NCBI GenBank assembly: GCA_049510745.1 | Contig: JBEKYR010000006.1 | Span: forward strand, 64,001 to 128,000 | Direction of reading: 5' to 3' | Length of the DNA: 64,000 bases | Source: Verrucomicrobiota bacterium | GTDB taxonomy: Bacteria > Verrucomicrobiota > Verrucomicrobiia > Limisphaerales > Palsa-1400 | Shown: piece after piece, positions 36,093 through 58,261 of the stretch | Position numbering within the stretch: the first letter of the stretch is position 1 | How the letters are laid out: every line of letters begins with the position of its first letter | Made by a program: the position numbers and the translations under genes | Notes under the pieces: generated by a model | The model's input: only the letters and a program-made list of their open reading frames with translations | What the model was told of the DNA's origin: nothing | Databases searched by the model: none

Positions 36093-36216
36093 TGTCCTCC
36101 GACTTGTCCCGCCATAGCGCCCAGCGCGACGGCGGAAGCCTTGGCGAAGGCGGACCTTTCCCGCCGTCTTGTCCGCCGAAGTTTTAACAGAGGCGGAAGT
36201 CTTGACGAAGGCGGAT
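36093..36216. repeat. Tandem REP-like palindromic units
   Basis: Two related units, each TGTCC(C)GCC ... GGCGGAAG(C/T)CTTG(G/A)CGAAGGCGGA, at 36105-36154 and 36170-36215. Confidence 0.7.
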
Positions 36217-36444
36217 CCCCAGAATTGCGCCCCGGCTGCCCTCGCAACCCTGGGGCCAATGCCGCCACCACCAGGGAGGGCTTGCGCCATTGGAATCATT
36301 CCGCTTCGCTCCATTATGGGCATCCGTGCCAGAAACCCAACCAGTCACACAACACGGTTGTCGCAAATAAAGTATTGCGAATTGGCTTGGAATTTGCCAA
36401 GCTGTGACGCTGTGGAAGCAAAATCGGTCTCCATTTCACTTCGA

Positions 36445-36954: not shown

Positions 36955-36975
36955 TGTTACCGACCGACTCAGCGT

Positions 36976-37368: not shown

Positions 37369-37450
37369 GATAAGCTGTCATTCTCTTGGGGAAACTGGCT
37401 CGTTGGTGGATTGAAGCATTGGATTCCCCTATTGCGGCCTTTGCACCCGA

Positions 37451-38485: not shown

Positions 38486-38706
38486 GCGCTTCCTTCCGCA
38501 TCGGTCCGTGCCACTTCCCGGACGAGTTGCACGCAGGCAGGGTCTTCGGGATTTGGCAGGTTTGGAAAAACCAGCGAGTAAACGCCAATCGCGCAAACAT
38601 CGCCAGCACGATACCAACGCACGCCCTGGACCAGACAATGGAGGAGGCAAGCGAACAAGCCGACTTCAAGTAATGTGGGATGCGCGTCCATCGCCTCAAT
38701 TACCCG

Positions 38707-39183
38707 TTATTTCACGCCCAAGTCCTTCTTTGCTAGTGACCGAATCTCGAGAAGGGCCCGCTTGTATGCCTCAAAGTCCGAATACATTATCTCGAACATC
38801 GAGGTCCTCCCGCCGTCCGGGTCAAGCCTGGGGCGCGCTTCGAGCGTCGCCAGAACAGCGGCCACCTCGTCCGAAACAATGTAGGCCCCAATGCCTGTAG
38901 CTTTCCGCAATTCTAGGTACGCCCTATGACATTCGTCGCCCAACTCCTTCTGGCGTTCCTCGCTGTACCGCACCCCCTGCTCAACATCGGCCATCGTGGA
39001 GCAGTACTCCACAAGTGCGTGCAAGGCATCCACAATTCGGGAGTACGCTTCCGCCTTCCTCTCCCACCAACGCTCTGCGCGGTAACGCCTCAGCGCCAGC
39101 CTCACGGAAATAATCGCCGTGCAGACGCCGACAACTATCGACGGCACAGCGTTGGTCAAGAAGATTGAGAGCCATTGGAGCAT
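38707..39183 (-). CDS. Hypothetical protein with an N-terminal TM helix
   Basis: Hydrophobic N-terminus, then ERWWERKAEAY helical domain. Confidence 0.7.
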   Translation of the reverse strand: MLQWLSIFLTNAVPSIVVGVCTAIISVRLALRRYRAERWWERKAEAYSRIVDALHALVEYCSTMADVEQGVRYSEERQKELGDECHRAYLELRKATGIGAYIVSDEVAAVLATLEARPRLDPDGGRTSMFEIMYSDFEAYKRALLEIRSLAKKDLGVK

Positions 39184-39503
39184 AACTCAGGCGATATTCC
39201 GACGATCTCAAAAGATTCACGTTTCATTTGCCGCCGAAGATGTCACCGCCAGCACCCAAAGTCAAACCTCTAGCGCGCTTACCACGTAGTGGGGCGAACA
39301 CCGCAGGGGCGGCGTCTCGGACTATCCATCGTTCAATTCCATCGGGTCATAGTTCATCTTCAATTTGGTTAGGGACTCTTTTGCCCAGCGACAAATCAAC
39401 TTGCCCGGCAGGCTGAATCTGGCATAGTGGATTGGCCAGCAGTCGGAAAAGTCAGAGTGGCGGGAGCAAAAAGTGCGATTTCGCCAATAAAATCAACGCG
39501 CGC

Positions 39504-39593
39504 GGAAGGGTGGCTGAGTGGTTGAAGGCACCTGACTCGAAATCAGGCTTAGGGGAAACCCTAACGTGGGTTCGAATCCCACCCCTTCCGCCA
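39504..39593 (+). tRNA. tRNA-Ser(CGA)
   Basis: Acceptor GGAAGGG/CCCTTCC, G discriminator, encoded CCA; anticodon arm CCTGA-CTCGAAA-TCAGG; long variable arm; GTTCGAATCC. Confidence 0.96.
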
Positions 39594-39697
39594 ATTTTCT
39601 CTAATCGCAATCATCATCAGAACTACTTTAAAAATCGTGTCTGATTGCATGTGCCAAATTCATGGAAACCGTCGATTCTATCGGTGTTTCTTGACAT

Positions 39698-39728
39698 TTG
39701 AGCGGGTGAATGGAATCGCGCTTTCGTC
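39698..39728 (-). repeat. Degenerate copy of a tRNA-Gly 3' end (inner att-like site)
   Basis: 25 of 31 nt identical to 53020-53050, same orientation. Confidence 0.7.
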
Positions 39729-39910
39729 ACTCTCCCGCAACTGTTTCGCGCGCTCTCAGCGGAGCCGGTAAAACCGCGGCGGCAATGACAGGAAATTGCT
39801 TTTCACAGGGTCGCCGGTTTATGGACGCTGCGCGGGTGATCCCCACCATCAGTCGCGTGTTGAATTGGGCCGGGGCGTTGACCATCGTGGCGCCAGCATA
39901 CACCGCCGCG

Positions 39911-41146
39911 TCAGGGCCTGGGCACGGCCAGGCTGGAATGCAGAATCAAAACAAGGCCGTCTGCGTCATACGGTTCGGGGATGACCCAACGCGAGCCGAA
40001 AACCAGTTTGGGGACGGCGTTGCCGCTCCGGAGGGTGTCGCCGTAAATCCGAATGGAGGTTTGCAGATACCGGCCGATCCAGGGGTCGGCCTGGGCGGCA
40101 TCGAACTTCGCCTGGCCGACCAATTCGACCGCTTTGGCCCTGGCGGCGTCAAGGCTTCGCGGGCGCCAGCGGTCACCGGACTCAAGCAAGAACATCCAGC
40201 GGTCAAAGAAAGGAAACGCCTCGCGCTTGGCCACCCAAACCGCCAGGCCAACTTTGGCCAGTTCGCAGGAGTCCTTGAATTCATCCACGTCCCGGGGGAT
40301 GTAGGGGTTGCATTGGCTGTTCAAGGGCGTCGGACAAAGGGCAAAGGCCAGCTTGCCGCGGTAGCGGCGGACTGCCTCATCGAGCATGAAATGCAGTTGC
40401 TGGCAATGGGGGCACTTATAATCAAAGAGCAGGGTAACGACGTAGAGGGCATCCGGCGAACCGACCAGTGGCGCGGCATGGGGATCAATGGCGGGCAGGT
40501 TCTGCTGCGACTCGCCGCCGCGATAGACGGCTGGAGGAGTAAAGCGGACCTGGCAGACCGCCAGAATGCCAGCCAGGGCCAGACCGACCAAGGTCAGGCC
40601 GATCGCGGGCAAAGGGCGAATAACGCGCCCTGGCGCGGCGCCCGTGGTGGCATTCGGCGCGGGATTCGACAGCGCGACATCGATTGAATCGTCGTCGAGT
40701 TGCATGGGCGCCCGCCAGAGGACCAAAGCCGCCAGCAGCAGGCCGGTGATGTGCGTGGCCATGCAATAGGGGCAAAAGGCCCCAATGAACGATTTCTGCA
40801 CGATGGTGAACCACACGGCACTTCCGGCGGCCGCCCCGACCAGAACCAGCATCGCGCGCCAGGCCAGCCGTCGGATCGGTGCCGCCGTGGCCGGACCAAC
40901 GAAAAGACCGGCTGCCAGCATCGCCAGGTACGCCCCCGCCGCCAGACCGCTGACGGGCAACACCCCTCCCACCGTGGACCACCGGCTGTTGAGCACCTGG
41001 TCACACGGGCTTCCGCCGCCGCAGCCGATTACCGACCCGCCCACCAGATAATGCCAGCCCAGGTAGGCGCTCAACGCCAAAGCCAGCCCGCTCAAACCCG
41101 TCAACACCCAGCGCCACCAAGGCCAGGACCGGCGAAATCGAGACAT
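39911..41146 (-). CDS. Vitamin K epoxide reductase (VKOR) fused to a DsbA/thioredoxin domain
   Basis: CGGGSPCDQVLNSRWS loop, FCPYCMATH, FDYKCPHC; start set at ATG 41146. Confidence 0.88.
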   Translation of the reverse strand: MSRFRRSWPWWRWVLTGLSGLALALSAYLGWHYLVGGSVIGCGGGSPCDQVLNSRWSTVGGVLPVSGLAAGAYLAMLAAGLFVGPATAAPIRRLAWRAMLVLVGAAAGSAVWFTIVQKSFIGAFCPYCMATHITGLLLAALVLWRAPMQLDDDSIDVALSNPAPNATTGAAPGRVIRPLPAIGLTLVGLALAGILAVCQVRFTPPAVYRGGESQQNLPAIDPHAAPLVGSPDALYVVTLLFDYKCPHCQQLHFMLDEAVRRYRGKLAFALCPTPLNSQCNPYIPRDVDEFKDSCELAKVGLAVWVAKREAFPFFDRWMFLLESGDRWRPRSLDAARAKAVELVGQAKFDAAQADPWIGRYLQTSIRIYGDTLRSGNAVPKLVFGSRWVIPEPYDADGLVLILHSSLAVPRP

Positions 41147-41153
41147 TTCTCCG

Positions 41154-44100
41154 CTAATACTGGTTGGGCGCACCGGGTGTGGGAACGCTGCCGGCGACCT
41201 GCGCCCCCCTGTCATGCGCCCGGGTCAATGCAGTGGTGAGGGTGATGCCGGTGCCGGAGACCTGGGCACCCACCGCGTGCGCAATTGTGAGCGGCGCGGC
41301 AACGGTGATTGAGGCGCCACCAGCGCCGCCTCTGCCACCTCTGCCACCGCCGGTGACGGAGGCCACAACCGCCGTCTCGAGGTTCGTGCCACTGTCAATG
41401 GTGATGGTCTGGCCCGCGCCAAAACCCGCCGCGCTGGCGACAGGGATAACGGTCGCGCTCACCTCGGTGGCAGTGCCTACCGTGCTGCCTCCCGCCGTGC
41501 CAACCGTCGCGATGACGGCGGTCTCGAGGTTCGCGCCCGCATCAACAATAATCGTCTTGCCGGCGCCGAAGTCTGCCACGCTGGCGACTTTTATATTGCT
41601 CGCGCCCGCGACCGATTCGGTCGATAGGGTGGTGGCGGTCTGCAACAGGAAATCATTGTGGTTGTTGCCGGTGTCGAGGCCGTCCGGAAAGCGTCCCGCG
41701 CTCCTATGGGGCGCGCTGGCGACCGGAGCGGCCGGCCCGCCGAAACCGCCACGGCCGGCGCCGGGCGTGGCCACGAAGTTGCCACTCGCCCCTCCTCCGG
41801 AGGCGGCTTGGTAACCCTCAGCCGCCCACGGGTCAACGACGCCGCCGTAGTTGAGGCTGTCGGCGACCAGGCCAGCGGCGTCACGCAGCACCATGCTGCC
41901 GGCGCTTGGGGAGAGAGCGGGTCCGCCGAACCACTGGTTTGGCGCCGGTGGCCCTTGGTAACCTGCGGTCGTAACCGCGGCGTCACGCACCACCGCGTTG
42001 ATCGCGTGGTCTTTGGCCAGGGGACTGTCAAGCGTGATGCCGGCGCCGAGCGGCTGGAGGGGCTCGTTGCTCGAGTGGGCAAAGGCCGTCGCCGGCTGGA
42101 AGCTGATCCCCGTTCCCCTGACGCTGAAGGGGAGGTTGCTCGCATGGTTGAACTTCAGCGGGGCGGACAGTTCGATTTCAGCGCCGCCGCCGCGGCGACC
42201 ACCGCCCGCGGGGGCTCCCGCCACCGCGCCGATGCTCTTGACCGTGACGGCCTCAATCCCGTGGTCCTTGCTGTCGATGTCCAACCTGATCTTGTCACCA
42301 ACCGAAATGTTGGCGGCGTTCCGCACCCTGATAGAGGTGTCGCCGGCTTTCGCGCCCGCCGCCAGGTAGGTTTGCGTGCCCGGCTTGCCGACCTCAGTAA
42401 CCGTGACCACCTCGTACTTTTCCACGTCCCTCCCGACAGCGGGATAGGTGGCACCGTAACCGATGCCGATCTTCTCGCCAACCTCGACCGCGAAGCCGCC
42501 ACCGCCGCCGAAGCCGCCCCCGCCGAAACCACCACCCGCGCCAGTGAAAGGCACGTTGGTCGAGCCGGCTGGAATCGTGATCACCGGTCCGTCGGGGAGG
42601 GGCTGCCACAGCGTCGTGCTGTTGCCTGCCGCCGTCCCGAGGCTGGCGATCTTGCGGGTTTCCACGCCGGAGCCGGTGTCAATTTCAATCGTATCACCGG
42701 CCGACATGCCGTTCGTGCTCCTGACGTGGATGGTGGTATCACCCTTGTGCGCGGGAACCGCCAGCCCGGAGTTGGCGAGGCCGAGCAGGTAGAAGCTTTT
42801 GGCCGCGAGTTTCGTTCCAGCCGGAATCTTGACCGACGAAAAGATGGCCTGCTGGGCGGCGTGCTCGATCAGTGTCCAGCCGGAGATGTCCACGGAACTG
42901 GCGTCAGCGTTGTAGAGCTCGATGAAGGAGTTCGCCGGGTCAACAGCGAACTCGTTGATCTTGATCGGGCTGACGTTCCGCACCTTCTCGACCATTTTCT
43001 CGGATTGCGTCTGGCCGCTTGTCGGGTTCGTCCACGAGGCGTTGGCGACCAGGTCGCCATTGAAGGCCACCCGCCCCGAGGTGATCTTGAAGGTCGCGCT
43101 CACGCTCGCACCCGGCGCGACCGGATCCGTGAACGTCTTTGAGGTCCCGGAGGCGCCGGAGACCACGGAGGTCCACCCCTTGGGCGCGGCAATGCTCAAC
43201 TTGACTCCCACGGCGGGCGCCCCTGTGGTATTCATGAATGTCACGGTGGTGTCCTGCGAGGACCCCGGTGAGAACGTCTGGAGTCCCGGCGGCGCGGCCG
43301 TGGCCGACGCCGGCGCCAGGCCCAACGTCTGCACGTCGTATTTGGCCGCCACAACGTTGGCCTGCACCTTCTGGTCGGTGGCGTCTGTTGGGAAGGTTCC
43401 TCCAGCCGTCATCGCGCCTTCATAAAAGGTGCCCTGCGAGCCGTTGCTGTTGTCCCCGCCGTTGCCCAGGAGGATGGCTCCCTGCTTGCGCATCGGGTCA
43501 TAGGATCTGTTGACGCGGGGTCCGTTGAACATGATTTTCAGTTCGCCGCTCTGCGAGTCGCCGCCCAAGGTAGTCCAGTGGTGCGGTTCGCCCTTGGCCA
43601 TCGCCGTCACGAATCGCCAGGTGATGTTCGGCAGGTCTCCGCAGAGTTTGGATCCATCCGGGTTGACACAACCCACCAGGTTGTTCTCCTGGTCGGTCAT
43701 GATCCACGGGCCGGGAGGCGGGCCATGATACCAAGGGGTGGCGTTTCCGAAGTAGGTAGTTTCCATGGTGCCGTTCCCGTCGTCGCGGCTGTCCGTCTCG
43801 GCGTTGCCGTAGTCGAAGCAGCAGCCGCCGTTGTAGTGATGGCCGTTCACGACCCAGTACTGCCCCTCCGCCTGGTCGTCCACTGCGGTGCCCTTCGCGT
43901 CGTCCCAGCGGAGGCCCATGCCCGGAGCGATGAAGACGCCGTAGGCCTTGTGGCCCATGACTGTAATCGGCGCCCAGTCGGCGACCGGGACGTTGTTAAA
44001 CCCACCCAAGGCATGGCCGCTGAATCCGCCGCGGGGCGCCTGGACGAGGTGGTTGCCCTTGCCGGACTGGTCGTAGAGGGTGGTGATCCAGCAGTAAGTG

Positions 44101-44429
44101 TTGGCGCAGAAGGCGTCCTGCGCGGCCGCGTTGGCGTATCCGCCCGCATCCGTCGCGGAGGGCCGGACGACGCCGATGTCCAAGGTCTTGCCGTCCGACT
44201 GGCGCATGACCTGGTAGAGCGGGCCGTTGTAAGAGGCGTACAGCGCGCGCGTGGAACTGTGGGCGGCCACGCAAGGGGTGCCGCCGGCGGCGTAGATGTC
44301 ACATGGGCCTTCTGGCCTGGGCGGAGGAAAATTGCGTCCCGCCCCGGCCGCTTTGGCCATAAACATCGTGGCTACAGGCAGCGTAAGCGCCAGTGCGAGT
44401 ATTATCACAAGACCGATTTTCGTTTTCAT
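41154..44429 (-). CDS. Secreted alpha-L-arabinofuranosidase B (GH54) with NPCBM-associated-like, lamin-tail-like and repeat domains
   Basis: GPCDIYAAGGTPCVAAHS, GCCFDYGNAE, GTMET, KQGAILLGNGGDNS..QGTFYEG; INEF..FIELYN lamin-tail motif; start set at ATG 44429. Confidence 0.88.
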   Translation of the reverse strand: MKTKIGLVIILALALTLPVATMFMAKAAGAGRNFPPPRPEGPCDIYAAGGTPCVAAHSSTRALYASYNGPLYQVMRQSDGKTLDIGVVRPSATDAGGYANAAAQDAFCANTYCWITTLYDQSGKGNHLVQAPRGGFSGHALGGFNNVPVADWAPITVMGHKAYGVFIAPGMGLRWDDAKGTAVDDQAEGQYWVVNGHHYNGGCCFDYGNAETDSRDDGNGTMETTYFGNATPWYHGPPPGPWIMTDQENNLVGCVNPDGSKLCGDLPNITWRFVTAMAKGEPHHWTTLGGDSQSGELKIMFNGPRVNRSYDPMRKQGAILLGNGGDNSNGSQGTFYEGAMTAGGTFPTDATDQKVQANVVAAKYDVQTLGLAPASATAAPPGLQTFSPGSSQDTTVTFMNTTGAPAVGVKLSIAAPKGWTSVVSGASGTSKTFTDPVAPGASVSATFKITSGRVAFNGDLVANASWTNPTSGQTQSEKMVEKVRNVSPIKINEFAVDPANSFIELYNADASSVDISGWTLIEHAAQQAIFSSVKIPAGTKLAAKSFYLLGLANSGLAVPAHKGDTTIHVRSTNGMSAGDTIEIDTGSGVETRKIASLGTAAGNSTTLWQPLPDGPVITIPAGSTNVPFTGAGGGFGGGGFGGGGGFAVEVGEKIGIGYGATYPAVGRDVEKYEVVTVTEVGKPGTQTYLAAGAKAGDTSIRVRNAANISVGDKIRLDIDSKDHGIEAVTVKSIGAVAGAPAGGGRRGGGAEIELSAPLKFNHASNLPFSVRGTGISFQPATAFAHSSNEPLQPLGAGITLDSPLAKDHAINAVVRDAAVTTAGYQGPPAPNQWFGGPALSPSAGSMVLRDAAGLVADSLNYGGVVDPWAAEGYQAASGGGASGNFVATPGAGRGGFGGPAAPVASAPHRSAGRFPDGLDTGNNHNDFLLQTATTLSTESVAGASNIKVASVADFGAGKTIIVDAGANLETAVIATVGTAGGSTVGTATEVSATVIPVASAAGFGAGQTITIDSGTNLETAVVASVTGGGRGGRGGAGGASITVAAPLTIAHAVGAQVSGTGITLTTALTRAHDRGAQVAGSVPTPGAPNQY

Positions 44430-44551
44430 ATCTATGCGATTCTCTAAACGGAGATTTCCAATTTGGCTTTCTGCCAGTAACCGCCAGGAAAAAGCAAGGA
44501 GCAGTCTAACCCGCCAACCCAGTGGGGTGCATTTCAGATTTTTAGGTTCCC

Positions 44552-44628
44552 CTCCTGATCTTGCTCCTAATGTCAATCTCTTCGCCTTCCTGCATTCGGA
44601 TTAAGAGCGAGATTACGATTACGATTAA
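44552..44628. repeat. Second, more degenerate TAATCN/NGATTA palindromic element
   Basis: CTCCTGATCTTGCTCCTAAT ... GATTAAGAGCGAGATTACGATTACGATTAAG. Confidence 0.6.
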
Positions 44629-44858
44629 GCAAATCAACCCAAAAATGCGATCACTGCCGGCAGACGCCCGGTGTTTTGAAGAATATGCCGCCTTGATCAA
44701 AATGATTTCGCAACGGAAGAAGCGACGATAGCGGCCCACTTGCGTTACGCCCGTGATCCCTCCGTCGGGGCGGCGCCGGGAGATTATACTCTTGAGCCGC
44801 TGTGAGGCGGAACGGGGCGGCGCTCTTCATTCATTGGAACATGAATCCCCGGCTCGCA

Positions 44859-45092
44859 TCACTCAATGGCATCCAGCGGAATGCGGTGGTCCGGCTTGTG
44901 GCCCTCAAAACGCAGAATCAACTCGACGTCTTTGAGGCCGCGGCCGAGGCAGGTGTTGATGGCGTTCAATAGATTGGGAAAATTAGACGCCGCCTCAGCC
45001 CGCTTGACCCAACGACCGGCGGGACTCAAGAACTTGTTGAGAGAAACGTGCCGCACCAAAAGCTTGCTGGGCAGTGGATCATTCGTTTGCAT
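44859..45092 (-). CDS. Small hypothetical protein
   Basis: 77-aa ATG ORF downstream of the oxidoreductase, same strand. Confidence 0.55.
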   Translation of the reverse strand: MQTNDPLPSKLLVRHVSLNKFLSPAGRWVKRAEAASNFPNLLNAINTCLGRGLKDVELILRFEGHKPDHRIPLDAIE

Positions 45093-45151
45093 GATATAAA
45101 ATTACACACGTTGGAGGGCAATGCCAATCGGTGGAAACCCTGTTTCGCCAC

Positions 45152-46165
45152 TCAGGCGGAAGCCGATTGTGACGGATCTTTCTCCACAGCCCATTGAGGG
45201 CCATCTGGATGGCCGGTGTCAGGATCAATAGTCAAGACGATCTTGCCTCGGACGTGGCCGCGCCGGCTCATTTCCAGGGCCTCGGGCGCGCGGACCAACG
45301 GGAGGACCTTGTCCACCATGGCTTTGATCTCACCGTTGGCAATCAGGTCACCCATCAGGGTCAATTCATCGGCGCGCGTTCGCGTCTGCATCTTGCGCGC
45401 CCGCACTCCGCACAGCAGGGCCTTAGTCTGCGACGGTACCGAAACGGTCGAAACCAGGCGGCCGTCAGTTCTGAGGACCTTCCAGGAACGATCCTGCGTC
45501 TGGCCGCCAACCAAGTCCAAAACCACATCCACGCGCTTGACCACGTCTTCAAAGCGGGTCGCGGTGTGGTCGATGACTTGTTGGGCGCCGAGCCGGCGCA
45601 GAAAAGAAAGGTTGCGGCTGGAGGCGGTGGCGATGACCCAGGCGCCGTGGCGGAGGGCCAATTGCACGGCAAACGAGCCGACTCCCCCTGCGGCGCCATG
45701 AATAAGAATCTTCTGGCCGGGCCGAATGTCCGCCGCGTCGAACAGTGCCTGCCAGGCCGTCAGGGCGCACAAGGGCGTGGCGGCGGCGTCGATGTCGTCC
45801 ACCGACGGGGGCTTTGCCGCCAGGCCGCCGACCGGCGCCGCGATCAATTCGGCAAAGGCACCGCCGTAACCGGAATGTCCGAAGACCGATTGACCGACAA
45901 AGAAATCGGTCACGTCCGGCCCCAGGGCCTCCACCATGCCGGAAAAATCACAGCCCAAGGTGTGGGGCATCGGCAACGGTCCGAGCAGTCCTTCGCGCAC
46001 TTGCCAGTCGAAGGGATTGACGCCGGCGGCGTGAACGCGAACCAGAACCTCACCCGGCGCCGGTTCCGGCGCCAGCACATCCTCGAAACAAAGCGATTCC
46101 GGGCCGCCGAAGTAATGGATACAAACGGCCTTGATCGTCCCTGATTCACGCAAAAGTGTATTCAT
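45152..46165 (-). CDS. NADP-dependent oxidoreductase (MDR / quinone oxidoreductase-like)
   Basis: VLVRVHAAGVNPFD, LTAWQAL, ILIHGAAGGVGSFAVQLA, RGKIVL. Confidence 0.92.
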   Translation of the reverse strand: MNTLLRESGTIKAVCIHYFGGPESLCFEDVLAPEPAPGEVLVRVHAAGVNPFDWQVREGLLGPLPMPHTLGCDFSGMVEALGPDVTDFFVGQSVFGHSGYGGAFAELIAAPVGGLAAKPPSVDDIDAAATPLCALTAWQALFDAADIRPGQKILIHGAAGGVGSFAVQLALRHGAWVIATASSRNLSFLRRLGAQQVIDHTATRFEDVVKRVDVVLDLVGGQTQDRSWKVLRTDGRLVSTVSVPSQTKALLCGVRARKMQTRTRADELTLMGDLIANGEIKAMVDKVLPLVRAPEALEMSRRGHVRGKIVLTIDPDTGHPDGPQWAVEKDPSQSASA

Positions 46166-46273
46166 TGGATTCCTTTCCTCTTACAGGCAATTTCGCAGGC
46201 TCGGGAACATTGTAAATCAGGCGCGAACCCCGACCGAGCCTAGGGGAATTGCCGAGTCGCGAGTTTTGCGCGG

Positions 46274-47902
46274 CTACGGGTTGGCTTGCGCCGTGGCGGC
46301 CTCGCGCGCGGCTTCGGCGGGTCCGATCCGGTTGGCCACATTGACGCCGTTGACATCATCGTAATTGATGGTCAGGCGCTGGCCGAGCCGCAGCTTGATG
46401 AACGGGGCGTCCGTGCGGCCATCCAGGACGATGGAACAATTGTCGGCCAGATTGAATTGTTTGACTCCGAAGAGAATATTGAAGCCGACGGGGAAATTCG
46501 CATCGGATGGATCAACCAAAACCACGTCGTCAATCCTGGATTCGGGGACGACACCGAGGATGCGGTCAATCAAATCGCCGTGCGGATCAAGGACACCCAC
46601 GCCATCGCCGTTTTCGATGTCCTGGCGGATGAGATTAAATAATAGTGTTGACTTTCCGGTGTCTGTGGCTCCGATGATGTGGGTGTGCTGCACCCGTTGG
46701 TCGGGCGTCAGTCGGACTTCAACGGATTCGCCGACGTGAACATTGTCACCGAGCAAGAGGCCGTGCGCGTGTCGAACGGAGGCCGGAGCGGCCTTCGTCC
46801 TGCCGGCGTCGCGCTCCAACACGGGTGAGCGGACGGCGCTCGACGGCAGGTGGACAAAGCCGATCAATTCATCGCTGTTGAGAAGCATCCCCGTGCGCCG
46901 CGTTTGCCGGAGCAATACGTCTTCGATGTGGTCTTCTGGGGTGGGGTAGTCATCATTGTGAAGGGGAATGAGCGCATTGCCCTGCGGATGGGTGAACACC
47001 CGCAATGAGCCCGCAAGGTCGCGCCCCAGTTGAAGCATTCGTTCACGCCGTTGGGTCTTGATCGCGATACGCACAACGGCGGCGAACAACGGACGGGCGA
47101 CTTTGGTTTTGGCCGCGTCGGCCAGTTCGGGCACATCGACAAAGAATGGCCTTCCGTCTGCACCCGTCACGGAATTGGTGATACTTTCCGCCCAGGGATT
47201 GTGCGCTGGTTGAAAGAGAACCTGGAACAAGGCAAGCTCGCCCATCCGTAATTCGCTCAATGCGCCGATGATGCCGATGAATGGGTCAATTTTGCCGCTG
47301 GCCAGCGGAAGCATGAATTCATGCTCCAAGCCGAATTCAGCAGCGAATTCTGCCGGCCCTTCAAAATGGCGCCACGCGTTCTCCAGCGTGCCCTGGCGCT
47401 GTTGAAACAGGACTTCGGGGAAGTATGCCTGCAATTGCCGCCGCACGAGCGGAGCATCATCCTCATGGGCCGCGAATTGGGCGACGACACGGTTGGGAAT
47501 ACCGAGCAATTCAAAGGCAATCGGCTCACGGCAGAGCGACAGATTCAAAAGGAACTGCTCGAATGTCTCCTTGGAGACGTCGAGCTTGGCGGGCAGGGAG
47601 GTTTGAAGTTCGATGAGCGGGTCACGGTAGAGCGGTTCCGGTTCGGGTTCCTCCTCCTCGGCCGGCGCCAGTGCAGGTTCCGGCGGCGCGGTTGAGAGCT
47701 TTCGGCTCAATTTCTGAACGAAGGAACTGAGAAGCGTCGGCTTGCGACCGTCGTCCACAGCGGGGGTGTCGGACAGGTGATGGCCGTAAAATGGGCGGAA
47801 GGGCGGCTCCGGGCAGATCGGTTCGTCGAAGACCTGCCAGCCACGACCGCGCCGCTCCCATTTGTAAAATTGTTCGGAGAATTGTTCGTGTGCCCCGCTC
47901 AT
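46274..47902 (-). pseudogene. Truncated VirD4/TrwB/HerA-like ATPase fused in frame to an unrelated C-terminal fragment
   Basis: HTHIIGATDTGKST Walker A variant, VLDPHGDL, GFNIL, then an abrupt switch near 46472; no Walker B. Confidence 0.7.
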
Positions 47903-47907
47903 GCCCT

Positions 47908-48354
47908 TCAAGCCTTCTGCTCAGGGCGGGTCGAAGGCACCGGCGGCTTGTGCAAATCGCCCAAAATCGGAGCGGACTCATACTGTCTCACCAACCCGCT
48001 TCGGGCCCGGCAATCAACACGGGCCAAAGGGCACGTGGCAAACGCGAAGCTTCCCTTCGCGGAACGAACCGGAAATGCAAGCAGTTTCGCCTCGCCAAAG
48101 GAGATCTTGCCGGCGCTAAAGTTGTCCGACCCGCTTCCGAAGCCTTCGCCGAACATATCATTGACATGCTGTTTGGTTTCATTATCGCGTGAAGCCGCAT
48201 CGCGGAGCACGCCCTTTAGGCTGGTCCCTGGAATAATTGGGAAGCCCGTGTGACGTTCGCGGACGATGGGTTGATCAATGGCACCCACGCTTGCCCCCGC
48301 GCCAACATGGAGCGGCGTACGGGTGAACAGATATAGAATTTTTGATTTGCTCAT
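47908..48354 (-). pseudogene. cmr4: Truncated type III-B RAMP Cmr4
   Basis: TPLHVGAG, AIDQPIVRERHTGFPIIPGTSLKGVLR, LLAFPVRS; similarity ends at ATCPLA (~48022). Confidence 0.85.
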
Positions 48355-48385
48355 GATTCCTTTATGAATTGTTCATTGTTCAAAG

Positions 48386-49786
48386 TCACTTCCCCAAACG
48401 TCCGGCGACGTTCTTGTAAAATTGCCAAGTGCCGCAAACGCCGAGGCCGAAGCCTTTTTCACCCAGAAGCGTACTGCGACGGTTTTTGATGGCGGTGGGG
48501 TTCGACTCACAGCCGTGCCAGTTGAGAACAGCGGCGAGTTTGCGAGCTTCATCAGCCGAGTCGGCCTCGAAATAGTAAACCGCGCCGGCAGGAACGGCGA
48601 CATGGGTGCTCTGTGCGCCGCCCGACTCGCCCGCGGCTTCATCGGGCAACGCCCAACCGGTAACGACGAGAGGTTTCGGAATGATGGCGGCGACGAGCTT
48701 GGCGGAAATGCTCTTTTGTTGACGGACGCGCCGCCGCCAAGTCTCTCGCCCCTCCCTTTTTTCGCGTGCAGCATCTCCAAACTTAAGAAGAACTTCACCA
48801 GTTTGAGGGCAAATCCAGTTGGGCAACCAACCTCCGGGATGAGCGGTGATGTGGCGCGTCGCATCTGCTTCGATTGCTGGCCACACTGCGGGACTCAGGA
48901 GAACCCACTTCACAGAAGATTTGCCGTCTCGTCGTTGGAAGCCATCGACTAGTCCGCGTGGCAGGGGTGGTGCTGAGTCCGGCATTCGCAATGCAGAGCA
49001 GATTCGTTGCTGACCGCCAACAATGATCTGGTGATGGCCGCCGTTGAGAAGGGTTTTGACGAGGTCGCTCCCATGCTGCGGATGTCTGAATTCCTTGTCC
49101 TCCGCAGAAGCGCAAACGCCGAGTTGCCAGGCTTCACGGAGACGGAGATAATGGGCCGAGTAAATTTTGCCGGTCGCTTCGCGCTGGCCCGCAGTGCCGG
49201 TGTCAGGATCAATTGCGATGCCGATGGTATGCTCGCAGTCGAAGAGGTCGTCGTCGGCGACAGCGTGTTCGGCCATCTGTGTGGATGTCACGCTGGAGTT
49301 GGCGGCGCCGAGATAAGTTTGGAATGCCTCCCTCGACAACCAGGGTTTCGCGGGAGATTCCTTGTCGGGCGGCAGGCGGTTCGCAACGGCGTATTCGAGC
49401 GGGTCGGGAAGACTGGATTGAACGGGGTCAAATGAATCCGTAGGCAGGAGCGCCGGTTGGAGTGTCGCGTCTTGAAGGTCGTGGGGGCGGGGGAAAAACC
49501 AGGTTGCGCCGTTCTTCACCGGAAAGGGACCAGCAGTGATGAGCGAGCCGAACTTGCGGTCGCGGTGCGCGTCTTCAGCGTAAACGCCATGTGCGCCGCG
49601 ACGATGGGCGTGGAGCTTATTGGAACCATCTGCATCAAGTTTTGCCCGGTGCAACGCGGCATGGAACGCACCGTTGATGACATTGGGCATCGGCCAGGCG
49701 GCGCCGTGGCCGGCGAGCGAGCCTGTCATGGGCCGGCCATCGCGGAAGAACATTATGTCTGTGGGTTGAAGCAGAATGGTGTTCAT
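48386..49786 (-). CDS. cmr3: Type III-B CRISPR-associated protein Cmr3
   Basis: LQPTDIMFFRDGRP, GPF, IGIAID, GGQQR, AVPAGAVYYF, GEKGFGL G-loop; ATGA overlap with cas10. Confidence 0.9.
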   Translation of the reverse strand: MNTILLQPTDIMFFRDGRPMTGSLAGHGAAWPMPNVINGAFHAALHRAKLDADGSNKLHAHRRGAHGVYAEDAHRDRKFGSLITAGPFPVKNGATWFFPRPHDLQDATLQPALLPTDSFDPVQSSLPDPLEYAVANRLPPDKESPAKPWLSREAFQTYLGAANSSVTSTQMAEHAVADDDLFDCEHTIGIAIDPDTGTAGQREATGKIYSAHYLRLREAWQLGVCASAEDKEFRHPQHGSDLVKTLLNGGHHQIIVGGQQRICSALRMPDSAPPLPRGLVDGFQRRDGKSSVKWVLLSPAVWPAIEADATRHITAHPGGWLPNWICPQTGEVLLKFGDAAREKREGRETWRRRVRQQKSISAKLVAAIIPKPLVVTGWALPDEAAGESGGAQSTHVAVPAGAVYYFEADSADEARKLAAVLNWHGCESNPTAIKNRRSTLLGEKGFGLGVCGTWQFYKNVAGRLGK

Positions 49787-52566
49787 GGCTGGGTTTGCTT
49801 TGCAGCGGCAGGCGTGACTGCGACTGACGCGGATTGAGAATCGGTGTCGCGGGTGCGATGGGCGAAGGCAACGGTCTGGCAGAGGCCGATGACATCACGG
49901 AGTTTCTTCTCCGCTTTATCCAGTCGGCCGACGTAATCAGCTAACAGGCTGAGCAGTTGGTCCGTCACTTCATGCGACCAGGCCGGGCCACGCTGGCGAC
50001 CGCAGACAACAGCAAATTCCCGCTGGATGATTACGTCCGAGACAGCTTCAAATTCGGGCGTCGGCGTCGTTGTCGCCAGACCTGTATGCTGCGTCAAATA
50101 AGGGTCGAGCAACTCAATTACGCGATACGGAAACTTGCTGCTGAGTTGATCCAATGCCAGCGCTGCGGCGATGGCACGATAGAGGTCCAATCCCCCGCTA
50201 TCCCATTTGCAACCCCACTCGATGGTCTCGCCTGAGCGTTTGAAAAGGGTAGCCGCCAAGGCGCTGCGACCAAGTTGCTTCTTCCCGCGTTTCTCGGCGG
50301 CATGAGCGGCGCGGACGACGTCCTGTAGCGGTGCCTTGAAGTGCGCGATGGCAATGCCGACGGAACAATCCGCTGCTGGGCCGGGGACAAGGAAGGGAAT
50401 GGATCGTCCACGGCCATGATCATCCCGCCACCGGTCTGATGAGAGGAATCCTGGTTGTGGGCTAAGGAACAGCGCTTCCCCTTTCATTGCCTTCACCTTG
50501 CGTCCGGTGAAAGCCAACCTCAAAGCCTCTGAACACGCCAACGCGTTGTCGGCAGGCAGGAGCGCAACCACATCATCTCCGCCGGCGTAGATAAGGCGTC
50601 CGTCGAAGGCTTCGACAATGGGCCGGGCGCAGAGCAACGCAAAGTTGCTCAGGGCTTCGCTGAATTGGAGGTGGTAGCTGGGCGAAAGCGGACGAGGGGC
50701 ATTGAGGAAGTTCCCGAATTCAGATTTCTCAAAATAGGGCTTCGATCCAAATCGCTGGGTGTGGGACCCGTCGTGATAATCTGCCAATTGGCTCGCAAAC
50801 GGTGGTGTCTTCTCGCCGCTCACCCACTTGCCAATCTCATCGCCATCGCAGGTAAGCACGGCAAAATATTTTTCCGACGAGTCCATTTCTTCTGCCAGCT
50901 CGTTCTCGGCATCATCATCTCTGCCAAACGGATCGTGTGCCGCCAAACTGCGGGTGTTCGGCATCGGGAAGTGGTCGGAGCCGGTCTCCAAACTCCATGG
51001 ATACTTGGCGAGATAGGCGAAGTGCCACAATCGCTTCACCAACGTGGCTGCGCCCAGCCAATCGTCGTGCTTGAAAAAAGACTTCCAGGGGCCACGATGA
51101 GTCCTGGCGTGATCCTCGGCACGCTTCGTCCAAACCTGTCCGCCACCCACGGTTTCATCCCGTCCGGTCAGGGCGTCTTTGTTGTTGAACGTGCCGGTTT
51201 GCCAACCGCCTGTACTCGCGGCGCCGAAGTGGCGCGTTTGTCGAACAGCATCGAGCGCCCAACTGTTGAAGGCAAGAATGACGGACCAGGCAAGGCCGAT
51301 GTTGTTGAGCTTGTCCTTGGGGCCGTCTTTACCGCCAACGTAGTAACGTCCATCCCGATGTTCGACTGGCATCTGCCGAGTCGCCATGTCCACAATGGTC
51401 TGAACACGGTCGCGAGCCTTTTGAATCGGCATATCGGGATCGAAGCCATCGGCGAGTTTCAAGGCATCTTCCAAGGAGTTCGGCCAGGGCGTAGCCTGCC
51501 AGGTGAGCGAGAGGAACCGGGCGATCTGGGCGTCGAAGCGGGCCTTGCGGTCAAGCGCGGTGATGCCAATTTCGTCATTAGTCAGACCGGCCTCCTGGCA
51601 GGCGGACCAAACGGCTCCGGCGATGCGCTTCCATTCATCCTCGATGGCCTTCTTAACCGTCTCACCAAGTTCGGCTGCACGTTCTGCCGACACCACGGCG
51701 AGGAAAACATGCGGAAGGTTGGGCGTGAGCAGATCACGGGGCTGCCAGTTGAGCGACTCCCATACGGTCTCATCGCCGATTTTCACCTTACTCCAAAGCT
51801 CGTCGCGCCACTGGAGGTCGAAGAGCGGTTGTCCGCGCAGGTTCGGAAAGATCACCGCATCGGGACCGACTTCGGCGGCAAGCGCCTTAATTCCAGCGGC
51901 CATGAGCCACGAGAGGAGGTAGCTGCCGCTCCAAAGGTCACGAATACTTCGGGCAGCGGCGATGAAGTCCTGTACAGGGCCGATCTGGAACTTGAGAAAG
52001 GCCGGACGCCAGACTTTGTCATCGCCGCATCCATCAAGCGCCGAAACCACCTGCATGTGTGTCCAGATGGAGTGATCAGGGATACGGGTGTCTGCTGGCA
52101 ACCAAGCGAGGCGATAGTCCTTTTCCACGGCGTGCTTCGACCAGAGACGCCAGTGGGCAAAGAACCGCGCACGCCATCGAAGACTCTCCTCCGGCAGGCT
52201 GGCGAGCGATTCGGCGGTGAGCAGCGGCTGGACGGATTCCTCGCCTTCGATGCCTTGCTCGGCGGATTTGAATTCCGCATGGAAAGGCAGTTTGATGCCG
52301 TCAAGCGGATGAAGAAATCCATTGCGAATTCCGTCAAACGCGCAGTGAAGGCCACTGGCCTGAGATGCCGGAAACGGCAGCCGGTCAGCAGCAGCACCGG
52401 TGTGGTCAGCCAGTTTGAAGTAATCTCCGATTTCGGTGTCAATGAACCCCGCGCGGTGAAAAGCAGTGTCGGACCGTTCCCCATGGGTTTTGATGTCCAG
52501 CGCTTTGCTGGGCGGGTCATGCAGGTAGGCGGCGAGCTTGCGTTTCCAGAAATTCGTGTCGCTCAT
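49783..52566 (-). CDS. cas10: Type III-B Cas10/Cmr2
   Basis: LHDPP, PADTRIPDHSIW, IGPVQDFIAAARSIRDLWSGSYLLS, DGDEIG, LIYAGGDDV; start set at ATG 52566. Confidence 0.94.
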   Translation of the reverse strand: MSDTNFWKRKLAAYLHDPPSKALDIKTHGERSDTAFHRAGFIDTEIGDYFKLADHTGAAADRLPFPASQASGLHCAFDGIRNGFLHPLDGIKLPFHAEFKSAEQGIEGEESVQPLLTAESLASLPEESLRWRARFFAHWRLWSKHAVEKDYRLAWLPADTRIPDHSIWTHMQVVSALDGCGDDKVWRPAFLKFQIGPVQDFIAAARSIRDLWSGSYLLSWLMAAGIKALAAEVGPDAVIFPNLRGQPLFDLQWRDELWSKVKIGDETVWESLNWQPRDLLTPNLPHVFLAVVSAERAAELGETVKKAIEDEWKRIAGAVWSACQEAGLTNDEIGITALDRKARFDAQIARFLSLTWQATPWPNSLEDALKLADGFDPDMPIQKARDRVQTIVDMATRQMPVEHRDGRYYVGGKDGPKDKLNNIGLAWSVILAFNSWALDAVRQTRHFGAASTGGWQTGTFNNKDALTGRDETVGGGQVWTKRAEDHARTHRGPWKSFFKHDDWLGAATLVKRLWHFAYLAKYPWSLETGSDHFPMPNTRSLAAHDPFGRDDDAENELAEEMDSSEKYFAVLTCDGDEIGKWVSGEKTPPFASQLADYHDGSHTQRFGSKPYFEKSEFGNFLNAPRPLSPSYHLQFSEALSNFALLCARPIVEAFDGRLIYAGGDDVVALLPADNALACSEALRLAFTGRKVKAMKGEALFLSPQPGFLSSDRWRDDHGRGRSIPFLVPGPAADCSVGIAIAHFKAPLQDVVRAAHAAEKRGKKQLGRSALAATLFKRSGETIEWGCKWDSGGLDLYRAIAAALALDQLSSKFPYRVIELLDPYLTQHTGLATTTPTPEFEAVSDVIIQREFAVVCGRQRGPAWSHEVTDQLLSLLADYVGRLDKAEKKLRDVIGLCQTVAFAHRTRDTDSQSASVAVTPAAAKQTQP

Positions 52567-52844
52567 ATTCACGTGCCAGTCTGGCTCCAATCATCCCACA
52601 CGTCGATCTTGGGAACGTCCACAGACGTTCTTGAAAAGGCAAGTCCACCTCGCCAATGTGCGCTTGGCTTCGCGCGATAACTACCCGGTATCACAAATTG
52701 TGCTCATTGCACAAGCCAATTCTGCTCTCCAAGAACGCGAGCGTTGACGCGCATTCTTTGCGTGGCCACACGACGTGCGGTCCGCAAGGACCAGACTCTC
52801 GCGGAAATCCGCGCTCCACATTCATCCCGGTGCAACCGAGCCTC

Positions 52845-52956
52845 TTATTCTCACCTTCATTGGTCAAGACAAACACTGGAACCTACTGAAAACAAAGGGT
52901 TTCAATGCACATTACCCCATGAATTCCGTGGCTGTTATTCTCACTTTTATTCTCAT
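52845..52956. repeat. Three copies of TTATTCTCAY, resembling integrase arm sites
   Basis: 52845-52854, 52935-52944, 52947-52956 in an AT-rich stretch next to the tRNA-Gly fragment. Confidence 0.6.
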
Positions 52957-53019
52957 TCTGTGAGATTTGGGAATGTGTGAATTGCGTAAGTAATTGAATA
53001 TCAACGTACTGAGTTATGT

Positions 53020-53062
53020 TGGAGCGGGTGAAGGGAATCGAACCCTCGTCTCAGGCTTGGAA
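53020..53062 (-). pseudogene. 3' half of tRNA-Gly (att remnant)
   Basis: Minus strand TTCCAAGCCTGAGACGAGGGTTCGATTCCCTTCACCCGCTCCA: T arm, acceptor 3' strand, U discriminator, CCA; 5' half absent. Confidence 0.85.
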
Positions 53063-53104
53063 AGATTCGACTCGATCAAGCCGGATGATTCGGGCGGAAC
53101 CCGA

Positions 53105-53350
53105 TCATGCGCCTCCGAGAAATTGATGGATTTGAGGCCAGAGAGACTTGGCGGGCTTGTTGCGGTCGTGTTCCCAGTTTTTGAGCGTTCTCGCGCTGAC
53201 GTCAAACCTCGCTGCAACCACTTTTTGCGTCGCACCGACAGCCAATCGCTTATCCAGCAGCAACTTGCTCAGTGGCCCTTGCTGACTATCGAAAGGGGGC
53301 GAATCCTGTCTTATGGCCTTGATCAACAGATGGCAAAAGGGGCGCAGAAA
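53105..53350 (-). pseudogene. XRE-family helix-turn-helix fragment or small protein at the island end
   Basis: KRLAVGATQKVVAARFDVSARTLKNWEHDRNKP; start uncertain, frame runs through the att repeat. Confidence 0.6.
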
Positions 53351-53372
53351 GGACCCCTTCCGCCAATTTTTT

Positions 53373-53405
53373 GAAACCCCTGGTTTTTCAGGGGTTTCCT
53401 CTTTT
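53373..53405 (+). terminator. Intrinsic terminator, probably the original tRNA-Ser terminator
   Basis: Perfect 10-bp stem GAAACCCCTG/CAGGGGTTTC, 6-nt loop, then CTCTTTT. Confidence 0.8.
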
Positions 53406-53447
53406 GTATTTGACGCTTCTTTGGCAATTGTGTAACGACAGTGGCGG

Positions 53448-55448
53448 ATGAGCGCGCCACACCAAACCGCCGTGACCATCAGCCGGAGGCGCTTCCTGCA
53501 ATCGACCGCCCTCGCGGCTGGGGCGGCGCCCGTGTTCGGTTGGCCCGCCTCGGCTGAAGCGGAAGAGCCTGCGGCCTTCGGTTTTCATCGTTGGTTTCCG
53601 CAATTCCCCGCTCCCCGCCAGCTTTGGATCGTGCCCTATGCCGGCGACGCCGAGGAGGGGATGATTCTGGAATCCATCGCCGGCCTGACCGCGCTCGGAG
53701 TTTTGCAGGGCCACGGTGACACCTTGATTTTCGAAGACGTGCAGAATGACGGTTACCAGCGATGGTTTGCGGCCTATTGCGGCGCAAATTCGCCGAAACT
53801 GACGCGGATGAGTCTCGACGAGGCCGTCGCGCGCTTGCTGCTTGCGGGGGTCGTGCGGGGCTACATTTTGTTCCGGTTCGAGCAATCCGACAGACCCTTG
53901 CATTCGGCGGGCAAACTTGACCAAAGCGCCAACGTGGCGACCTCGCTGGTTTCAGCTTGGAAGTCCTTGGCGGTTTCCGAGCGCTTGGCCGGGCATGTCG
54001 AAAAGCTCGGCCTTAAACGATTGCTCGACGTGCGCGAACGCAGCGAACTGTGGTGCCTGTCGCAACAGGAATTCTCCCGCAGCGTGCTGGGAACCGCCGA
54101 CCCGAAAACGCGCCAGGCCCGCTCGCTCATGATCGCGCTCAACGCCTTCGTCTGCTCCGGCACGGGCGACGCGTATCAAAAAGGACTCGCCCGCTGTGAG
54201 GAGGATGTGCCGGTGCTGGGCTGGGGGTGTGACGCGGAAGACCGGCAGACCCTGTCGTCCTCGCGCTGGGGACTCTTTCAGACGGCGACGAACTGGTGCC
54301 ACAATCTTCCAGTGTTCGCCAGTGATGTCGTGGACAAATCCATTCCCGCGGACCAGTTGCGCGTCCGATTTGCTCCGCCCTGGTCAACCCTCGACTGGGG
54401 CGATGGCTTTCATCACGTGAACTTCACGTTGAGCGACGGCGACAACGTCCAGTGGATCATGGGCAACTTCACCGGCGGCAACGAAGCGCCCAGCTACTAC
54501 GGGAACCCGAAACGGGGCAGCATTCCTTTCACGTGGGGCCTTCCGGTGCCGTCGCTCTATCAACTGTCGCCGCGCACACTGGCTGAAATCCTGGCCAAAG
54601 CAACGGCGAACGACGACTTCGTACAGTTCCACGCCGGCGGTTACTTCTATCCTGACATGTATGGGCAAGCGCGCGGCACAACCCGTGCGCTTGAGCTTCA
54701 CGCCGAGCGCCTGCGCGCTTACATGGACCTGACCAACATTCGCATTATCGCGTTTAACTTCCAGGACTGGGACGGGGCCGCGGCGCATGCAGCCTGTGAA
54801 ATTTTCGCGTCAAAGTTACCCGGACTGCTCGGTATTCTCGCGTTCCAGTATTATCCCTATTCGGCGGGCCAAGGTGCCATCCGTTGGGTCAAAGGTGTCG
54901 GGGGCGACGAAGTCCCAATCGTCTCCTGCCGGCTGACGATCTGGGCGCAAACCGGACGGCCTCGCGACACAACCCCCGCCGCCGTTGCCGCGCACCTGAA
55001 TCGGCTGCCCACGGCCGGTGAAAAGGCAACCGATGATTCCTTCTCGTGGGTGATCGCGCATGCCTGGTCGCGTTTTCGCCGTGCCGGAAAGGAGGCGCCC
55101 CTCGACGCCGAAGAAACGGGCGTGGCGCAAGACAAGGCAGCTCCAGACACCGCGCGCGCATACGAACCCGTAGTGTGGGCGGTCGCTCGACTCGGACCGC
55201 AAGTAAAGCCAGTGACCGCGCGCGAACTGCTGTTGCGCGTGCGCTTGCGTCTTCGTCCTTATTGGACCCTGTCGCGCTGGCTGGCCGAAATTGGAGATGA
55301 AGCCAATCCGGGGACGCGGCCGCCCGCCTCCGCCAAGATAGCCGCCGAAGCCCGCGCCTTGCTTCCCCAGACGAGCCATGATGCCACGGCGGCCCGTCGT
55401 TGCTTTGAATTGCTTAAGCTTGCAGGCAGGGGACGGCGCCTCTTCTAG
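53448..55448 (+). CDS. Tat-exported GxGYxYP-family putative glycoside hydrolase
   Basis: SRRRFLQ Tat signal, PVLGWG, SDGDNVQW, GGYFYP. Confidence 0.75.
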   Translation: MSAPHQTAVTISRRRFLQSTALAAGAAPVFGWPASAEAEEPAAFGFHRWFPQFPAPRQLWIVPYAGDAEEGMILESIAGLTALGVLQGHGDTLIFEDVQNDGYQRWFAAYCGANSPKLTRMSLDEAVARLLLAGVVRGYILFRFEQSDRPLHSAGKLDQSANVATSLVSAWKSLAVSERLAGHVEKLGLKRLLDVRERSELWCLSQQEFSRSVLGTADPKTRQARSLMIALNAFVCSGTGDAYQKGLARCEEDVPVLGWGCDAEDRQTLSSSRWGLFQTATNWCHNLPVFASDVVDKSIPADQLRVRFAPPWSTLDWGDGFHHVNFTLSDGDNVQWIMGNFTGGNEAPSYYGNPKRGSIPFTWGLPVPSLYQLSPRTLAEILAKATANDDFVQFHAGGYFYPDMYGQARGTTRALELHAERLRAYMDLTNIRIIAFNFQDWDGAAAHAACEIFASKLPGLLGILAFQYYPYSAGQGAIRWVKGVGGDEVPIVSCRLTIWAQTGRPRDTTPAAVAAHLNRLPTAGEKATDDSFSWVIAHAWSRFRRAGKEAPLDAEETGVAQDKAAPDTARAYEPVVWAVARLGPQVKPVTARELLLRVRLRLRPYWTLSRWLAEIGDEANPGTRPPASAKIAAEARALLPQTSHDATAARRCFELLKLAGRGRRLF

Positions 55449-58254: not shown

Positions 58255-58261
58255 AATAATT

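Follow-up and report, generated by a model that had tools for sequence, protein, structure and literature searches.

Probable decay of a composite island at a tRNA-Ser gene of Verrucomicrobiota, with a reused tRNA-Gly half next to a severed recombinase tail

A stretch of 64,000 nucleotides from a Verrucomicrobiota genome (GenBank assembly GCA_049510745.1, contig JBEKYR010000006.1, positions 64,001 to 128,000 of the forward strand; hereinafter the window) contains a 13.8 kb island delimited by two copies of an 18-bp tRNA-Ser repeat, just inside which lie two copies of a tRNA-Gly 3′ end. We consider it reasonably probable that this island is a composite that has been collapsed by deletions and that bears a secondary Gly site, making it a variant of the tandem accretion already known among mobile elements. 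We infer that it is at present immobile, and it is probably now fixed in place. The sites on which this account turns are the following, in window coordinates:

39504..39593, plus strand: tRNA-Ser(CGA), the chromosomal target (ARAGORN; Rfam RF00005, 60.7 bits)
39581..39598, plus strand: left copy of the 18-bp Ser repeat, attB-like, identical to 53353-53370
39698..39730, minus strand: degenerate tRNA-Gly 3′ end, taken as an old Gly junction (25/31; 26/33; same context in L053)
53020..53062, minus strand: tRNA-Gly 3′ half up to the anticodon loop, a reused secondary Gly site (homologous position in L011, L012, L014, L053, L054, L056 and L057)
53353..53370, plus strand: right copy of the 18-bp Ser repeat, the attR of a large serine recombinase (LSR) element, identical to 39581-39598

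The Ser repeat spans the 3′ end of tRNA-Ser(CGA), which is the sole Rfam match above the gathering score in 36000-56000. The nesting of Gly copies inside the Ser repeats, first described in a sequence-only reading of this DNA, is borne out in the source genome (G000, 94% complete; C-numbers denote its contigs, the window lying on C6). Over 53020-53064, the right copy matches the intact tRNA-Gly(CCC) at C9:132177-132250 in 44 of 45 positions, the sole mismatch falling in the anticodon loop; the left copy (39698-39728) has the same orientation and is 25/31 identical, as claimed, and the spacing of 99 bp and 290 bp inside the Ser repeats likewise stands. The left match lies above chance, since the best of 500 dinucleotide shuffles of 39600-53019 reached 22.

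The right end of the island holds the tail of a recombinase gene that was cut by its own integration. It comprises two overlapping features:

53105..53365, minus strand: XRE-type helix-turn-helix (HTH) frame of 86 amino acids (aa), the severed C-terminal tail of an LSR (77% to the P0001 C-terminus)
53328..53352, plus strand: attP-derived P arm of the LSR, including a 14-bp inverted-repeat motif (sequence comparison)

The XRE open reading frame (ORF) is intact, with its first codon exactly at the Ser core. Searches with a six-sequence XRE alignment recovered 26 genome and 79 metagenome loci, most of which likewise have the Ser core at the first codons. Among the genomes of the order, 38/401 (G000 included) were positive in the alignment search, some through distant HTH paralogues, and the XRE query gave zero matches at E ≤ 1e-8 in 400 other genomes of the phylum. 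The missing front part is seen in relatives: on contig C92 of G002, a tRNA-Ser is followed by a 500-aa LSR that runs through the core into the tRNA antisense strand and then by a coupling gene, with the following Ser core 56 kb off at an XRE arm that groups with the clade of the window. The same LSR left end is found in G012 and G464 (tblastn). Further, L163 encodes a fused LSR-HTH ORF with the Pfam Recombinase and HTH_3 domains, and P0001 combines a front part 93–97% identical to the G002 LSR with a rear 77% identical to the window XRE. The attP-form junctions display a 14-bp inverted repeat around a 24-bp center, a geometry consistent with serine-integrase attP sites (PMC3783163), and at 53328-53341 the window has an arm motif that repeats, inverted, the LSR-side arm of these junctions. 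Given the fused LSR-HTH frame where the arms meet and this inverted-repeat geometry, we therefore identify 53328-53370 as an attR and the XRE frame as a severed recombinase tail. What was earlier termed an "XRE-HTH fragment" is thus the cut-off end of an LSR. The tail has a median dN/dS of 0.21 (21 pairs, 7 sequences). Three LSR queries against G000 found no full LSR, matching the tail alone, and within the island no match to an LSR (Resolvase plus Recombinase domains) was better than E 1.2. The idea that the XRE frame gains its start codon from the left arm on circularization was also considered: the window has an in-frame ATG, yet in L053 the frame is interrupted and in L013 a stop ends it, and the idea was rejected since the true upstream partner is the LSR.

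Several observations widen the picture of this recombinase family. Its members at tRNA-Ser genes have the gene cut at the att core and the HTH tail fused only at attP-form junctions (L211:106-1608 from G002, L214:18358-19896 from G012, L231, L241, L163:3758-5179 and P0001-P0003), and one member targets tRNA-Ser(GCT). Related LSRs after the same coupling gene terminate at other, non-tRNA sites. Just within the XRE end of the G464 Ser-LSR element lie a repeat array and a 1050-aa ORF that looks Cas9-like by eye (L165:2175-8275). In several relatives, a tyrosine integrase gene or fragment is found just upstream of the tRNA-Ser(CGA) 5′ end (L065:7371-8477, L218, L016).

The second pillar of our account is the tRNA-Gly half behind the XRE tail and the arm that adjoins it (the arm labels A, B, D and ATTAG are our own):

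52843..53019, minus strand: left arm of a tRNA-Gly element family, arm B (71–87% to the arms at C15, C50, C69 and C79)

The window thus has the Gly 3′ end together with the family left arm of an arm-B tRNA-Gly element. Besides three tRNA-Gly genes bearing this 3′ end, G000 carries 8 further orphan copies of it at 28/31 or better, four of which share the 175-bp arm B that adjoins the window's half. A complete arm-B element of 30.6 kb, with a 389-aa tyrosine integrase and a right arm, is present at C15:1877-32474; its right junction is non-tRNA sequence, with a piece of a tRNA-Gly 3′ end about 20 bp beyond. Within the XRE clade of the window (9 rows, support 98/92), the Gly piece occurs at the homologous position in 6 rows, one of them partial, and the arm that follows it varies: B in the window, A in L011 and L057, and D in L012 and L056. 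These arm types share merely 7-13/45 positions with each other; A and D share 23-34/45 with arms behind real tRNA-Gly genes, and each of the three also occurs behind genuine tRNA-Gly genes. This supports the view that the Gly half beside the XRE tail works like a landing pad reused by different elements. G008 (L012) and L054 hold a Ser-to-Ser unit of 538 bp in which one Gly fragment stands without any insert; its spacer and arm type differ from those of the window. In G006, the pad occurs with another left arm, and a second Gly copy is missing.

Gly-bearing XRE rows also occur outside the clade (L064, L123, L169). A single origin of the Gly site beside the tail is rejected (approximately unbiased test, p-AU 0.0004; L169 is a long branch, and 12/81 rows with broken frames were excluded), and the starred tree branches require at least three Gly-site changes. 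Such sites thus appear to have arisen next to the LSR tail more than once. A Gly end lies within 450 bp behind the XRE arm in 6/70 clusters with enough flank, in a sample biased toward the window's kin, as compared to about 0.09 expected by our arithmetic from the Gly density of G000, with the kin not independent. The Gly-then-Ser pattern is present in only 2/401 genomes of the order, G000 included. A whole decayed tRNA-Gly gene behind the XRE frame was considered and rejected, the 30 nt upstream of the half being no closer to the tRNA 5′ part than shuffles at 9/9 loci (p 0.21-0.997). Elsewhere in G000, a tRNA-Gly(GCC) at 152470 of C6 is flanked by 3′-end fragments 2.7 kb downstream and 7.3 kb upstream (C6:149726-159812); C6 also bears two tRNA-Ala(CGC) copies, and the small contigs C73, C74 and C75 carry tRNA arrays of 11, 8 and 4 genes, one with a TTA anticodon.

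At the left end, the 99 bp between the Ser repeat and the degenerate Gly copy (39599-39697) resolve into two pieces:

39599..39652, plus strand: AT-rich tRNA-proximal arm, the ATTAG arm (faint likeness to left ends seen in other integrase-less Ser segments)
39653..39697, minus strand: left arm, cut short, of an earlier tRNA-Gly element (30/45 to the arm that L179 has behind its tRNA-Gly(TCC); 25/45 to L064)

The likeness of the ATTAG arm to other left ends is short (about 6–11 nt), and the 30/45 match of the second piece was reached in 0/5000 shuffles (pool of 34). Against the P′ arm motif of the LSR, the window's left end scores 6/14 and seven other ATTAG-type left ends 2-6/14, as compared to 8-12/14 in true attL or attP junctions (7/7). 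The left Ser repeat is called attB-like because no LSR P′ arm follows it, and the left end is thus not the partner of the attR at 53328-53370. Relative to an intact Ser-LSR island, the window retains an attR with its attP-derived arm and lacks the LSR gene and the P′ arm of attL. The right side of the older Gly element is likewise missing: the inner flank of the 39698 copy matches nothing above shuffles upstream of 39 Gly-like fragments, L053 excepted (27 as compared to a shuffled mean of 27.3), and no right arm with repeat motifs and adjacent tyrosine integrase, as seen in C15, L174 and L227, was found at 39729-40000.

These results bear on two ideas of the sequence-only reading. It had posited a miniature tRNA-Ser element carrying a portable Gly landing pad; the pad is indeed reused, by three arm types, and an empty 538-bp form exists, but the outer part is not self-contained, as the 6/14 score of its left end indicates. 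Likewise, the outer remainder of about 0.4 kb does not stand as an element in its own right: it is itself a mosaic, with 45 of its 99 left-hand bp belonging to an older Gly arm and its right end being the attR scar of an LSR element of the 50-kb class.

The inner 13.3 kb is a mosaic of truncated cargo:

39911..41215, minus strand: VKOR-thioredoxin oxidoreductase, cargo (Pfam PF07884, PF13462; 94% in L053)
41154..44429, minus strand: GH54 arabinofuranosidase-domain protein, cargo, with its start predicted from L053 (Pfam PF09206; 89% in L053)
44525..44650, no strand assigned: dispersed repeat with three more genome copies (85–94% to C7, C23 and C34)
45152..46165, minus strand: zinc-binding dehydrogenase, cargo (Pfam PF13602, PF08240)
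46469..47902, minus strand: 5′ half (aa 1-472 of 1023) of a coupling-protein-like gene of an integrative and conjugative element (ICE) (69.6% aa identity to the gene adjoining the LSR in G002)
47917..47994, minus strand: final codons of an ICE gene (the one upstream of the coupling protein), joined in frame with truncated cmr4 (48% over 27 aa by tblastn, E 3.6e-4, 600-bp subject)
48025..52590, minus strand: truncated type III-B cas operon with cas10/cmr2, cmr3 and the 5′ third of cmr4 (Pfam)

The coupling-protein-like gene, which normally precedes the recombinase, matches Pfam PF10412 and PF01935 only under the cut-off. A longer type III-B operon is present in G007 at about 70% identity. The operon of the window, cut within cmr4, is probably non-functional because the rest of it was not found in G000 with the queries used, nor was a CRISPR-like array by a crude repeat scan (arrays often remain unassembled). 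The arm-B repeat motif occurs twice in 52843-53019 and nowhere else in the island, and no integrase was found within it. Accordingly, with its left arm present and its right arm and integrase missing, the inner 13.3 kb is not one clean element. The arrangement of the GH54 gene directly upstream of the VKOR-thioredoxin gene (39911-44429) recurs in L053 and in many metagenome variants.

Misassembly of the tRNA fragments, which the sequence-only reading had raised against itself, is unlikely. Metagenome contig L051 spans 46971-63365 at 100% identity (it may be the source), L052 spans 51358-53955 at 99.85%, and L053 is contiguous across 39581-41150 at 94%, with L052 and L053 bearing the two junctions with few differences from the window. 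The depth in run X3, which may also be the source, is even, at 14-20 over 44804-52741 as compared to 13-18 in the flanks. The runs containing the stretch are peat and wetland metagenomes, and the relatives with names are Verrucomicrobiota, one of them Limisphaerales. No second copy of the tRNA-Ser 5′ end was found on C6 at 16/22 or better, and no flanking host genes were found beside tRNA-Ser in the fetched relatives; therefore, no empty chromosomal site can be demonstrated. Outside the island lie a lower-GC region upstream of tRNA-Ser (35000-39500), holding unannotated ORFs along with several dispersed repeats that many contigs share, and one further feature:

53373..53398, plus strand: terminator-like hairpin (similar hairpins follow the Ser cores in L017, L127 and L252)

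We propose the following course of events. An ICE-like element with an LSR would have integrated at the 3′ end of tRNA-Ser(CGA), as it has in the relatives. As attP lies inside the LSR gene, such integration leaves the LSR reading into the tRNA antisense strand at attL and the 86-aa HTH tail stranded at attR. In an ancestor of the lineage, a tyrosine-integrase element may then have inserted off-target about 45 bp behind this tail, leaving the tRNA-Gly 3′ half. Further Gly-site elements, as the diversity of the arms shows, have reused this half, stacking in tandem and pushing the older ones toward the tRNA. Finally, deletions would have taken the LSR with the left arm and the Gly integrase with the right arm, would have halved the coupling protein, and would have left little of the cas operon and almost nothing of the older Gly element; the truncations are visible in the window, and their sequence in time is our reconstruction. 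What would remain is two unmatched site pairs around mixed cargo. So understood, the island is ordinary in kind, a product of decay and accretion.

Several findings weigh against this account. The coupling gene precedes the LSR in 15/20 fetched homologues and is found with an arm-B tyrosine integrase and Gly attR in 1/20 (L227), with 2/20 running off their contigs and 2/20 showing neither; the coupling-protein tree leaves the window copy unplaced, so that this gene does not tell the parent element. For the same reasons (L227 and the tree), we dropped the coupling protein as proof that the inner DNA belongs to the Ser element. In L053, a single Ser core links the closest relatives of the two window ends (94% and 82%): its block of GH54 gene, VKOR gene, Gly end and 99 bp adjoins the closest relative of the window XRE, with other genes beyond both sides. 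A circular intermediate explains this junction as well as a tandem array does, and L053 may hold a tandem junction or, alternatively, a permuted circle. Each of the 8 short segments whose left arm is of the ATTAG type terminates in an XRE arm (for 3 of them, this was not the segment used for retrieval), so that the ATTAG-to-XRE segments look like a mobile unit; of segments with other left arms, 7/9 also end in an XRE arm, in a sample gathered through XRE. Excision junctions, which the sequence-only reading had proposed to seek in reads, were looked for in the contigs of four runs (those with a small share of window words being excluded): the joints listed, 15 of 18, included none that marked a circle or a Ser or Gly site restored to its empty state, and since contigs lose rare variants this counts as weak evidence of immobility. 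A joint 39598→53315 in run X7 was not counted as excision, as it has 26 letters on one side and unknown sequence between.

The foremost rival reading, which we regard as unlikely, is that the window holds a non-autonomous Ser element, with an AT-rich left arm and an LSR-derived right arm with the HTH tail, that a relaxed LSR still moves in trans and that uses the Gly half as a cargo-loading site. It draws on the empty unit in L012 and L054, on integrase-less ATTAG-to-XRE segments of 0.5-13.8 kb that are in part tandem, on the excess of Gly ends behind XRE arms (subject to the relatedness of the kin), on the rejected single origin of the Gly site, on the permuted junction of L053, and on an arm-B integrase being available in trans at C15. 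Yet the left site is without a P′ motif, and other site pairings are no substrate for canonical serine integrases (PMC3783163). Moreover, spacer and arm type are not the same in the empty unit as in the window, the pad of G006 has another left arm and no second Gly copy, the Gly-then-Ser pattern is rare in the order, and no full LSR was found in G000. A broader version, which we find distinctly doubtful, holds that split-LSR elements at tRNA-Ser repeatedly gained a Gly site directly behind the orphan HTH tail, and that derivatives of these, 0.5-14 kb long and without the LSR, circulate as shuttles with two sites: Gly integrases would load cargo at the pad, a relaxed LSR would move the unit in trans and the tail might act as a switch. 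Were this true, such shuttles would be a natural cross-integrase platform for cargo capture.

The sequence-only reading had also offered that a Gly-site island was captured and moved to a Ser site, and this may be so, L053 looking permuted. In its explicit form, which we judge improbable, a Gly integrase would have cut a circle with one Ser attR junction and two Gly junctions from a composite island, and this would have reinserted at tRNA-Ser via the short Ser core, the window being a moved piece of a Gly tandem array. The order in L053, where a degenerate Gly end is followed by the 99 bp, the Ser core, the XRE and then a Gly piece that stops at the T-loop, is a circular permutation of the window's ends, and in G520 a distance of 160 bp separates an attP-form LSR junction from a Gly site whose arm resembles arm B, the exact Ser(CGA) core not being found on that contig. 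However, the expected second Gly junction and arm B are not present upstream of the L053 GH54 gene, where an acyl-carrier/ketosynthase cluster is found instead, and a plain tandem at tRNA-Ser yields the same junction, 12/79 XRE junctions being followed by ATTAG-type arms. That the 39698 copy is due to chance or the junctions to misassembly is very improbable and largely refuted: X3 unitigs do end at the Gly repeat, which has many genome copies, but 0/500 shuffles exceeded 22/31, a Gly-type arm adjoins the 39698 copy, and L052 and L053 carry both junctions with slight differences.

Two other sets of segments were noted among these loci. Integrase-less tRNA-Ser segments of 3.5-3.8 kb that end in an XRE arm carry an AEP-TOTE primase-helicase (L028:10001-13636, L037, L089, L097), several of them also with a PIN toxin-antitoxin-like pair. 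A two-component-system island with an XRE remnant (C1:280728-293636 in G000) is 91% identical over 4.5 kb to the module behind the L053 XRE; it is adjoined by pieces that, from their sequence, we take to be comM/yifB.

Returning to the deletion-collapsed composite, its wider interest lies in the players that it reveals. The tRNA-Ser-targeting LSR family of these peat Verrucomicrobiota has its HTH domain attached only at the circle or tandem junction, and tRNA fragments stranded inside one island serve as targets for unrelated integrases, sites that would escape island finders requiring an intact tRNA and an integrase. Should the recurring Gly site be selected rather than accidental, it would represent a new route of cargo exchange between serine- and tyrosine-recombinase elements. 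A description of a Gly pad or site beside a split LSR tail was not found in a literature search that was weak on subscription papers and supplements, and the supplements of PMC3146451 may bear on its novelty.

Among known systems, the tripartite ICEs of Mesorhizobium similarly have att sites for several integrases on one mobile entity; these (PMC8627217) comprise three integrases with ordered, demonstrated excision, whereas the window has no integrase and no sign of an ordered or working two-integrase system. The tyrosine-integrase islands cataloged by Islander (PMC4383910) share a displaced tRNA 3′ fragment marking the island end, tandem arrays and crossover classes at the anticodon loop or T-stem region, into which the arm-B family (C15 of G000, G587) fits. 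In contrast, the Gly "target" here is a fragment inside another island, without tRNA-Gly gene or integrase. That 2014 paper states that no serine recombinase was known to have a tRNA gene as its target; the LSR of the outer parent element here has one. [quoted passage not shown] The present island likewise has no integrase, and its coupling protein ends at aa 472 of 1023. However, a CIME retains functional attL and attR; here, the Ser pair lacks P′ and the Gly pair its right arm, and the island is not a CIME because neither pair is complete. Further, two recombinase classes and two tRNA specificities are here interleaved in opposite orientation.

The closest likeness is to the ssrA-specific islands of Dehalococcoides with the serine recombinase DsiB (McMurdie et al. 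2011, PMC3146451). In these, as in the relatives of the window, an LSR on the reverse strand has a 3′ end that overlaps attL and reads into the target RNA gene; those islands, too, occur in tandem, many without an integration module, and they hold a tRNA-Gly-like locus, which is complete, 76 bp long and about 4.4 kb from attL. In the present island, tRNA-Ser(CGA) takes the place of tmRNA as target, and the Gly sequence consists of a 3′ half that lies next to attR and shows signs of reuse. The DsiB authors suggested that their enzyme is perhaps complete only on the circle or behind an adjoining island; here, what is cut off is an HTH domain that P0001 and L163 have in fused form, and the split LSR-HTH thus offers a concrete case of the idea put forward for DsiB.

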